64,000 nt of DNA from Minwuia thermotolerans (GTDB lineage: Bacteria; Pseudomonadota; Alphaproteobacteria; Minwuiales; Minwuiaceae). Below the pieces are notes generated by a model, which saw only the letters and a list, made by a program, of their open reading frames with translations, ran no database searches and was not told the DNA's origin. Positions 56,556 to 58,745 of this stretch are shown one piece after another. The translations under genes and the position numbers were made by a program. The stretch lies in assembly GCA_021604565.1 (NCBI GenBank), contig BQJF01000012.1:6429-70428 (forward strand). The letters run 5' to 3'. Position 1 is the stretch's first letter. Each line of letters starts with the position of its first letter.

Positions 56556-56615
56556 AAAAAAAGACCGCCCACCTTTTCCGTCGCCGCAGGATGCGGTTCC
56601 GTCAAGGTGGCGGCC
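56556..56615 (-). terminator. Intrinsic terminator (attenuator) in the nasF leader
   Basis: Minus strand GGCCGCCACCTT...AAGGTGGGCGGTC followed by TTTTTTT, between promoter and start codon. Confidence 0.8.
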
Positions 56616-56626
56616 TTGCCACGGGC

Positions 56627-56670
56627 GACCCGTCAATGGATCGCTATGTCTTGGAACGCCCTCGTTGGCG
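56627..56670 (-). promoter_or_regulatory. ANTAR (NasT) dual-hairpin RNA element
   Basis: CGCC-AACGAG-GGCG and GATCC-ATTGAC-GGGTC; both hexaloops have A1 and G4; lies just upstream of the terminator. Confidence 0.8.
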
Positions 56671-56685
56671 CTCGGCTCTATCTAC

Positions 56686-56821: not shown

Positions 56822-58015
56822 TCAGCGAACAATCGGTCGGACTTCACCGAGGTAGCGACGAACGTTGCCCGGATCGAAGTAGCGGCCATCCATCAGCGGG
56901 GCATGATCACGCCCCGCAGCCGCGCCTGGAAACCCGGTGGCATCTTCCAGCAGGTCGGCGCGGTAGACCTCACTCACCATCCGCACGGCCTGTTCGCTGT
57001 AGTCGACCTGCCCCCATCGCATCATCTGGCTGAGCACCCAGGTGGCCGCAGCGGGATCGGGCAGGTTCATCCGCCCGCCGCCGAACCGCAGGAAATCGGG
57101 CGCATGGCGAACCGTCCCGTCAGGATGCACCACCAGATCACCACTCAACGCGCGGCGGAGGATGCGTACGGGCGCACCGACATGTGCCTCATCCGCCAGC
57201 AGTCCGACCAGATCCTCGCGGTTGTCCGGATCCTGGCACCATTCCGCGCCCGCATGCAGCGCCCGCAGCAACCGCCGCAGCAGGTCCGGGTGACGTTCGG
57301 CCCAGACCGTGCGGGCCCCCAGGACCTTTTCCGGCGCGTCGGGCCAGATGTCGTGTTTCAGGGCGACGATCGCAGCCAGGCCCGCATCGACCGCCAGACT
57401 GCCCCAGGGTTCGCCGACACAGAACCCATCGACCTGCCCGGCACGCAGACTGTCCACCATCATTGACGGCGGAATCACGACGATGCGCACATCCCTGTCG
57501 GGATCGATGCCCGACGCCGCCAGCCAGTAGCGCAGTTCGTAGTTGTGACTGGAGAACGGGAAGACCATGGCCAGCACCAGCGGCGGCTTGCCCGCTGTCG
57601 CGCGCTGCCTGATGAGGTCCCGCAGAGCCAGGCCAGCCGTCACGGGGCTCTCCCGCCATCCTTGTGCGGTTTCGTCCAGGCCCGCGAACAGGCATCGGCT
57701 GAGCGCGATGACATTGCCGCCACGCCCGAAGGCAAAGGTCGCAACCGTCGGTACCTTCAGGTGATTGATGCCCAGCGATGCGGCGAGCGGCATCCCCGCC
57801 AGCATCTGCGCGACATCCAGATGGCCGACATTGACGCGGTCGCGAACGCTGGCCCAGGACGGTTGCCGCACCAGGCGAAGATCAATCGCCTCCGCCGCCG
57901 CCAGCCCACGCCGCGCCGCAACGATCAACGGTGCCGCGTCAACCAGCGGCAGGAAACCGGCGCGCACGACTTCATGGCCCTCGCGGCCCCTATCCATGTT
58001 CATGTCGATTTCCAC
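56822..58015 (-). CDS. nasS: Cytoplasmic nitrate sensor NasS
   Basis: NrtA/CmpA-fold motifs [43 protein letters not shown]; no signal peptide; follows nasT; start uncertain (58015/58003/57997). Confidence 0.88.
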   Translation of the reverse strand: MEIDMNMDRGREGHEVVRAGFLPLVDAAPLIVAARRGLAAAEAIDLRLVRQPSWASVRDRVNVGHLDVAQMLAGMPLAASLGINHLKVPTVATFAFGRGGNVIALSRCLFAGLDETAQGWRESPVTAGLALRDLIRQRATAGKPPLVLAMVFPFSSHNYELRYWLAASGIDPDRDVRIVVIPPSMMVDSLRAGQVDGFCVGEPWGSLAVDAGLAAIVALKHDIWPDAPEKVLGARTVWAERHPDLLRRLLRALHAGAEWCQDPDNREDLVGLLADEAHVGAPVRILRRALSGDLVVHPDGTVRHAPDFLRFGGGRMNLPDPAAATWVLSQMMRWGQVDYSEQAVRMVSEVYRADLLEDATGFPGAAAGRDHAPLMDGRYFDPGNVRRYLGEVRPIVR

Positions 58016-58091
58016 GCACGGAGTTCATCGTACCTCTCTCCCGCACAGGGCGACCACCGGCATGGTGCGCCGCCCAGGTAGGTTTCCGTTC

Positions 58092-58135
58092 GCGCTCCGT
58101 TGCGCATACCGTTTCCCGGTCTCGCCATTGAGACC
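58092..58135 (-). promoter_or_regulatory. Second ANTAR dual-hairpin element between nasT and nasS
   Basis: GGTCTC-AATGGC-GAGACC, 12-nt spacer, GCGC-AACGGA-GCGC; both loops A1/G4. Confidence 0.7.
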
Positions 58136-58157: not shown

Positions 58158-58745
58158 TCAGGCAAGCAGCTCCGACGCCGTCACCACACTTCGGGCAATG
58201 TCGGCAATCTTCTTCTTCTCGTTCATCGCGGTGCGCCGCAGCAACGAATAGGCGGCCGGTTCATCGACGCCCTTGCTGCGCATCAGTATCCCTTTCGCCC
58301 GCTCGATCACCTTGCGGTCTTCCAGCGCGCCCTTCGTTTCCTCAAGCTCCTTCCGCAGGCGGGAGAAGGCGTTGAAGCGACTGATCGCCATATCGACGAT
58401 GGACCGGACACGGGACTGCACCAGACCATCGACGATATAGGCCGAAACGCCCGCCTCGATGGCCTGGTCGATCATCGCCCGGTCGGAATGGTCCACGAAC
58501 ATGGCAATCGGGCGTCGCACATCGCGGCTCACCTGGAACATCTGCTCCAGCACGTCACGGCTGTGATCCTCCAGATCGATCACGATGACATCCGGATCCA
58601 GGGCAAAAATTCGCCGCTGCAGGTCAAATGTATCGGTGATCAGGTGCGCATCCACCTCACCCGCGCCTGCCAGCCCATCCACCAGAATGGCCGCACGCAC
58701 GGGATTGCTGTCGATGACCGCTACTTTGAGGGGCGCTTTTTGCAT
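58158..58745 (-). CDS. nasT: ANTAR response regulator NasT
   Basis: Receiver-like N-terminus (DPDVIVIDL, RPIAMFVD, AGVSAYIVDGL) plus ANTAR domain RKVIERAKGILM..EPAAYSLLRRTAMN; start at ATG 58745. Confidence 0.93.
   Translation of the reverse strand: MQKAPLKVAVIDSNPVRAAILVDGLAGAGEVDAHLITDTFDLQRRIFALDPDVIVIDLEDHSRDVLEQMFQVSRDVRRPIAMFVDHSDRAMIDQAIEAGVSAYIVDGLVQSRVRSIVDMAISRFNAFSRLRKELEETKGALEDRKVIERAKGILMRSKGVDEPAAYSLLRRTAMNEKKKIADIARSVVTASELLA

Follow-up and report, generated by a model that had tools for sequence, protein, structure and literature searches.

The nasT-nasS spacer

The window, a 64,000-nucleotide stretch of Minwuia thermotolerans DNA, carries on its minus strand nasT, a spacer, nasS, a regulatory region, nrtA, nrtB, and nrtCD, in that order. 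The genome falls within the Minwuia group. In many soil and marine proteobacteria, NasS and NasT are the main module by which nitrate and nitrite are sensed for assimilation; in Bradyrhizobium they affect N2O reduction as well. The features that concern us are listed below.

58158-58745, minus strand: nasT, 195 amino acids, response-regulator-like, with a C-terminal ANTAR domain (Pfam PF03861, 72.7 bits)
58118-58135, minus strand: hairpin HP1, GGUCUC-AAUGGC-GAGACC, with a 6-bp stem, an A1/G4 hexaloop, and a C:G closing pair
58107-58117, minus strand: linker between HP1 and HP2, 11 nt, GGGAAACGGUA, variable in sequence across the genus
58091-58106, minus strand: hairpin HP2, (U)GCGC-AACGGA-GCGC(G), with a 4-5-bp stem, an A1/G4 hexaloop, and a C:G closing pair
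58048-58075, minus strand: hairpin HP3, GGGCGGC-G-CACC-ATGCC-GGTG-GTCGCCC, GC-rich, 7+4 bp, with one bulge and a 5-nt loop
58033-58042, minus strand: SD-like sequence, GGGAGAGAGG, 4 nt ahead of ATG 58028
57990-58028, minus strand: 12-codon open reading frame (ORF), MNSVRGNRHEHG followed by a stop that overlaps the nasS start (AUGGAUAG)
56822-57997, minus strand: nasS, NMT1_2 family, NrtA-like (Pfam PF13379, 229.9 bits)
56556-56673, minus strand: nrtA leader attenuator with three hexaloop hairpins (41.4 bits, E 4.5e-7, with the covariance model R1 described below)

The likely start of nasT is ATG 58745, since the alignment of relatives begins at residue 1 of the 195-aa form, and the gene ends with TGA at 58160-58158. 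It is the single PF03861 (ANTAR) gene in the whole genome and sits directly upstream of the hairpins. Judged from its sequence, the nasS product is a cytoplasmic nitrate/nitrite sensor, NrtA-like and of the NMT1_2 family. The spacer between the two genes measures 142-160 nt in the window.

HP1 begins 22 nt past the nasT stop codon. HP3 stands 15 nt past HP2, with no overlap, and 5 nt ahead of the SD-like sequence. All three hairpins are present together in the RNAfold minimum-energy structure, and the folding z-score of the whole spacer is -1.65. There is no U-tract 3' of HP3. Instead, TGTGCGGGAG stands there, and the stretch after the hairpin reads UGUGCGGGAG. An earlier note on this DNA, made from the letters alone, had described the same three hairpins between nasT and nasS. 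Their sequences, strand, and coordinates are correct, as are the A1/G4 positions in both hexaloops and the account of HP3 as a strong hairpin lacking a U-tract; the Pfam matches to PF03861 and PF13379 bear out the flanking genes.

Published work defines an ANTAR target as two stems of at least 3 bp, each with an A1/G4 hexaloop and a C:G closing pair (PMC3369931, PMC7496416). HP1 and HP2 have all of these properties and a cognate ANTAR protein, NasT, is encoded in the genome. The classical ANTAR switch also requires that the second hairpin overlaps an intrinsic terminator (PMC3369931). HP2 overlaps no stem with a U-tract and coexists with HP3. Nor does the motif overlap a ribosome-binding site or start codon, as actinobacterial targets do: HP2 is complete at 58091, ahead of the SD (58042-58033) and the AUG (58028).

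In the four genomes of the window's clade, the SD-preceded ATG, which corresponds to the nasS start in G009, opens only a 12-codon ORF. In the same four genomes the nasS ATG (57997 in the window) is one frame over, has no SD, is buried in structure, and overlaps the short-ORF stop. Specifically, ATG 57997 lies in a local hairpin, with an AUG unpaired probability of 0.16, and the upstream SD is mostly unpaired in the predicted ensemble. Since the short ORF aligns with the ancestral nasS start in G009, it is probably a relic of a frameshift, now in use as a coupling ORF. Translation of nasS thus probably depends on termination-reinitiation coupling with the 12-codon ORF.

We considered, and rejected, two other possibilities for the spacer. 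A REP-like origin is rejected, since the spacer is unique in the genome, with no second copy as a dispersed repeat. An internal nasS promoter was sought in the spacer too. No promoter-like site was found there; the spacer lacks a sigma70-like site and shows no sigma54 spacing by eye.

Alternative folds of the spacer were also examined. The earlier note had proposed that the left arm of HP2 pairs, as UGCGC:GCGCA, with HP3. This pairing exists, as a result of the self-complementary GCGC. It is lost in G013 (L003) and not favoured once HP3 is complete. As a switch we reject it: it is a palindrome effect, G013 lacks it, and its logic does not suit antitermination. Until the 3' arm of HP3 has been transcribed, the 3' half of HP2 is predicted to be able to pair with the HP3 5' arm. 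Another rejected candidate is a helix between the 5' half and loop of HP2 and codons 2-5 of the short ORF, which would block the start. This is the minimum-energy structure in G012 and G013, lies 4.6 kcal/mol above the minimum in the window, and is absent in distant genomes; of two G013 substitutions in the helix, one is neutral and the other disrupts a pair. Simulating NasT-bound RNA by a folding constraint, for seven sequences, produced no consistent change in accessibility of the SD or AUG. We found no conserved mutually exclusive structure among the spacer folds.

Conservation and rarity of the paired hexaloops

In the genus Minwuia, nasT is present in 8 of 12 genomes, and 7 of those 8 have a nasT-nasS spacer, of 134-163 nt. 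Both hexaloop hairpins are kept in all seven, 9-23 nt past the nasT stop. Positions A1 and G4 are found in 14 of 14 loops; positions 2, 3, 5, and 6 vary. The HP1 loops are AAUGGC, AACGUC, AACGGC, and AGGGAA, and the HP2 loops AACGGA, AACGGC, and AACGCC. The HP1 stem also varies (GGTCTC/GAGACC, GGTCTC/GAGGCC, GGCTC/GAGCC, GGGAGATC/GACCTCCC, and CTGTGGTTC/GAGCTGCAG), and every variant is still paired. The linker is 9-17 nt long across the genus and its sequence is not conserved.

For the proposed pairs in alignment A2, pairing amounts to 86%, compared with 27-55% when the partners are slid, and double-sided changes occur at four pairs. For instance, pair 9-22 of HP1 is GC in three rows, UA in three, and UG in two. 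The closing pair 12-19 is CG in 7 of 8 rows, the exception being a misaligned Chthonobacter row, and pair 44-51 is CG in 8 of 8. The HP2 stem is a nearly invariant GCGC, with a mismatch in G010, and so provides no covariation. The earlier note had named conservation and covariation in relatives as checks on its proposal. Conservation is borne out by both hairpins, and all 14 loops, in the seven genomes. Covariation is seen in part: changes in the HP1 stem stay paired, the HP2 stem contributes none, and the statistical power is small because there are just four sequence-distinct Minwuia lineages.

Using blastn, the window spacer has no match to the three distant Minwuia spacers. Hence, the hairpins are the sole conserved feature apart from geometry. 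As to geometry, 60-71 nt separate the end of HP2 and the first start codon in all seven genomes. The four close genomes retain HP3, their differences in it being wobble or compensatory. The three distant genomes have a non-homologous hairpin in its place, which includes the SD.

The eighth nasT-carrying Minwuia genome (G008, locus L095) has a nasT-nasS pair of different ancestry, with 59% NasT identity, a 27-nt gap, and no hexaloop element. In the tree, it groups with Hyphomicrobiales sequences. These features suggest replacement of the pair by horizontal transfer.

How often might such a motif arise by chance? When the 142-nt spacer is dinucleotide-shuffled 20,000 times, 15 of the shuffles yield a dual A..G.. 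hexaloop with stems of at least 5 bp, and 3 also have C-G closing pairs. A loose descriptor (A..G.. hexaloops, stems of at least 5, spacer of at most 20) has 52 matches on both strands of the 9.2 Mb genome, mostly in coding DNA. With a stricter descriptor (both loops AAYG.., stems of at least 4) there are 7 matches in the 9.2 Mb, and the longest stems are those of the element itself. Other genome matches of the descriptor or R1 (C13, C29) are inside coding regions and were set aside. A chance origin of the dual hexaloop in the spacer is unlikely.

Nas leaders and other nasT-nasS loci

A nas leader of standard type precedes nrtA in the window. Its hairpins (56673-56654, 56644-56625, and 56622-56607) run into a terminator with a U7 tract (56615-56556). 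Both this terminator and an upstream sigma54/NtrC promoter are found before nrtA and neither is found at the spacer. Three A1/G4 hexaloop hairpins, rather than two, are present in the leader, and the same layout occurs in many alphaproteobacterial nas leaders. The third hairpin (GUGGC-AAGGCC-GCCAC) shares sequence with the 5' arm of the U7 terminator, which gives this leader the classical overlap.

Scoring with an ANTAR-RNA covariance model was a further check named in the earlier note, and here the result went against it. Model R1, built from 15 nas structural-gene leaders only, detects the nrtA leader, our positive control in the window (56606-56644, 41.4 bits). It does not detect the spacer element in the window at E<=10. 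Scored singly, HP1 and HP2 reach 3.6 and 2.1 bits. The element is missed mainly because of geometry, since in the leaders 1-4 nt lie between the two terminal hairpins, whose stem sequences are conserved. The 11-nt linker in the window contrasts with the 1-4 nt between P1 and P2 in alphaproteobacterial nas leaders. In this clade's nrtA leader the first two hexaloop hairpins are 9-12 nt apart, a spacing that the window's linker matches. For the E. faecalis eut system, linkers of 5-12 nt are workable and linkers of 3 or 14 nt impaired EutV action (PMC3369931). Linkers in the Minwuia spacers reach 17 nt, beyond the 14 nt that impaired EutV. For the element, Rfam gave no family match at gathering scores and just noise at E<=10. 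As it misses the bona fide nrtA leader too, Rfam appears to have no usable ANTAR-target model. We conclude that the element resembles an ANTAR target, yet is outside the standard nas-leader attenuator class, having neither the terminator nor a match to the leader model.

A second model, R2, was built from the seven Minwuia spacer elements and cross-matches one true leader, that of nirB in Alsobacter soli (25 bits, E 0.003). In this leader (L039 4720-4860), a sigma54-type promoter (TGGCACG-N4-CTGCA) accompanies a dual hexaloop whose linker is 17 nt long. The leader has no U-tract terminator, and the start codon is 38 nt downstream. From its sequence, it is a candidate terminator-less NasT target before a structural gene.

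Spacers between nasT and nasS are rare elsewhere. In 80 of 80 NasT relatives from reference genomes, nasS is downstream of nasT, and the genes abut or overlap in nearly all. The sole exception with a real spacer and the element is Chthonobacter albigriseus (L031). None of 71 further metagenomic nasT-nasS loci has a real spacer and, taken together, in about 150 other loci the genes abut and the element is absent. A metagenome scan for Minwuia-like spacers found no close relatives (best NasT identity 68%). Long gaps at L021, L022, L028, L050, and L075-77 were rejected as spacers, since they are really N-terminal extensions of nasS. At L055 (3573-3740; Rhodopseudomonas pentothenatexigens), a nasT-nasS gap of about 166 nt is made of long GC-rich palindromes, with no ANTAR motif. 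With a folding energy of about -113 kcal/mol over 203 nt, the gap looks like the insertion of a REP-like element.

In the Chthonobacter family, 4 of 14 nasT-carrying genomes have a 200-250-nt spacer with a related dual-hexaloop element. Applied to these spacers, R1 gives 34.5 bits for G017 (E 1.3e-5), 18.9 bits for G015, and 15.8 bits for G018. The G017 score is comparable to the 37-41 bits of true leaders. Several members of this second clade have lost A1 in one loop. At the Chthonobacter albigriseus locus (L100/L031, 3602-3644), the hairpin homologous to P1 has the loop GGAGAU, without A1, and an overlapping alternative hairpin, AUUUCCG-AGCGUC-CGGAGAU, gives an A1/G4 hexaloop again. In a tree of NasT and NasS, the Minwuia clade is far from the Chthonobacter-family clade, and each is nested among spacer-less lineages. 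Hence, the arrangement arose at least twice. The conserved architecture combines a NasT-type site with a GC hairpin that adjoins or includes the nasS ribosome-binding region, at a set distance from the start codon, and is found only where nasT and nasS are uncoupled.

Could the spacer simply hold ordinary intercistronic structure, such as a shield of the nasT mRNA against 3' exonucleases, with loops that fit A..G.. without binding NasT? GC-rich spacers do fold easily, the spacer z-score is just -1.65, and the L055 gap illustrates GC palindromes devoid of an ANTAR motif. However, ordinary structure predicts stable stems and drifting loops. What we see is A1, G4, and C:G closing pairs invariant in 14 of 14 cases, with stems that vary. 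The element is unrecognised by R1 and the loose descriptor has its 52, mostly coding, matches in the genome; against this, the shuffles place the motif at a p of about 1e-3 to 1e-4, and the placement between the sole ANTAR gene and its partner arose independently in a second clade, where the ANTAR motif is significant by R1. We consider ordinary structure an unlikely explanation.

Proposed feedback on nasS and known systems

We propose that HP1 and HP2 are a NasT site, and that NasT exerts feedback on nasS post-transcriptionally, rather than by classical antitermination. We give this reading a probability of about one half. The adjoining or overlapping nasT and nasS genes of most bacteria probably yield NasT and NasS in a coupled ratio. 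A spacer separates the two genes in Minwuia and bears the putative NasT site, and then a GC-rich hairpin beside the nasS ribosome-binding region. Nitrate would free NasT from NasS, and free NasT would bind the spacer RNA. This binding, which we infer from the conserved, rare, and recurring motif, would alter the yield of NasS from the distal cistron. The likeliest direction is an increase of NasS, a negative feedback that would restore the inhibitor. As for level, NasT may act on translation initiation or coupling, or on processing or stability around HP3, since there is no intrinsic terminator to be disrupted.

Data for Paracoccus denitrificans are relevant here. They indicate that NasS-NasT acts at the translational level too, and that nasT and nasS are unequally expressed, with nasT more strongly induced than nasS despite cotranscription (PMC5424462). 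Together, the conserved architecture and this published post-transcriptional control favour NasT-dependent post-transcriptional control of nasS.

The earlier note implied classical antitermination, in which HP3 terminates transcription after nasT and NasT, on HP1 and HP2, permits readthrough into nasS. Certainly, a dual hexaloop followed by a strong GC hairpin looks like an attenuator. However, nearly all nas leaders examined have a U5-U8 tract, U7 in the nrtA leader of the window, whereas UGUGCGGGAG follows HP3, none of 11 spacers has a U-tract after the equivalent hairpin, and a simple terminator scan of the spacer is negative. Pairing between the HP2 3' half and the HP3 5' arm is possible before HP3 completes. 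This transient pairing is absent in G013 and, in any case, NasT holding HP2 would favour HP3, which is the opposite logic. Furthermore, the 15-nt gap keeps HP2 and HP3 from overlapping, and both are in the minimum-energy structure together. The greater induction of nasT than of cotranscribed nasS in P. denitrificans (PMC5424462) would also fit readthrough control. Given the lack of a U-tract in 11 of 11 spacers, and hairpins that do not overlap and coexist, we conclude that antitermination at HP3 is improbable.

Alternatively, NasT binding might reduce nasS expression, or stabilise the nasT part only, locking the cell into nitrate assimilation through positive feedback. With HP2 locked, the HP3 5' arm would be free to complete HP3, and in distant Minwuia genomes the SD is inside the downstream hairpin. 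The alternative pairing is not conserved and modelled accessibility has no consistent trend, both of which speak against such a mechanism. Precedents exist: ANTAR binding represses translation in actinobacteria (PMC8164766, PMC12591593), and BglG remains bound to its mRNA, which it stabilises (PMC12591593). Repressing actinobacterial sites overlap the ribosome-binding site, however, and the Minwuia motif ends about 50 nt upstream of the SD. We regard positive feedback as quite improbable. Very improbable is a decoy role, in which NasT's own mRNA would titrate the free protein, buffering NasT and leaving nasS output unchanged; HP1 and HP2 are constitutive, with no competing structure, as a passive site would be, and the EutX/Rli55 sRNA, which carries an ANTAR dual hairpin that sequesters EutV, is a precedent, but a low-abundance regulatory mRNA makes a poor sponge, and the 60-71-nt geometry to the nasS start, with presence only at uncoupled nasT and nasS, points to an effect in cis.

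A stronger form of the post-transcriptional feedback reading is possible, although we hold it more doubtful. Here, the terminator-less site is a stoichiometry controller, by which free NasT switches on nasS translation or survival, and which evolved at least twice. If so, free NasT would be held near the binding constant of the site in the absence of nitrate. The inhibitor would be pre-loaded, for quick shut-off when nitrate is exhausted, and each origin would correspond to the splitting of a normally overlapping nasT-nasS pair.

The site bears on how cells set the NasT:NasS ratio. Leaky antitermination in Paracoccus has been put down to an excess of NasT that is itself unexplained (PMC5424462). 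An ANTAR site between the genes would set the ratio directly, by feedback. If true, Minwuia would offer a clear natural proteobacterial case of an ANTAR target that acts without a terminator, and the terminator-less site supports the idea that NasT can act after transcription. Recurrence in two clades provides two natural test systems.

In the searchable literature, we found no description of an ANTAR site between nasT and nasS. The idea of the circuit, an antiterminator that induces its own inhibitor, does have precedents in the ami and bgl systems. In E. coli bglG-bglF, a second BglG target lies between the gene for the antiterminator and that for its negative regulator and sensor, so that BglG induces its own inhibitor. 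The protein family is unrelated (a CAT domain and RAT hairpin) and, unlike in the spacer element, a canonical terminator overlaps the RAT. In Pseudomonas aeruginosa amiEBCRS, the likeness is an ANTAR antiterminator, AmiR, sequestered by a ligand-binding partner, AmiC (PMC12591593). Because amiC is inside the controlled operon, the action of AmiR raises its own inhibitor (PMC12591593). There, one leader terminator precedes the whole operon, and inhibitor and antiterminator rise together. Here, their ratio would change.

The nas leaders (Pseudomonas NasT/NalA, P. denitrificans nasA, and Klebsiella NasR/nasF) share with the element two A1/G4 hexaloops, C:G closing pairs, a place in a nitrate-assimilation cluster, and a cognate ANTAR protein encoded adjacently. 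They precede structural genes, whereas the window element is between the genes for a regulator and its inhibitor. Other differences are the 11-nt linker (9-17 nt in the genus), no sigma54 promoter, and no U-tract terminator over P2. ANTAR matches that adjoin ANTAR genes have been listed before (Table S2 of PMC3369931). The Alsobacter soli nirB leader is similar in its terminator-less dual hexaloop, with the 17-nt linker and the cross-match to R2. Finally, other terminator-less ANTAR targets (those in Figure S3 of PMC3369931 and the actinobacterial ANTAR RNAs) also have a dual hexaloop with no intrinsic terminator, and are presumed to act on translation. The actinobacterial sites overlap the ribosome-binding site or start codon, whereas here HP2 ends about 50 nt before the SD, with a hairpin between.
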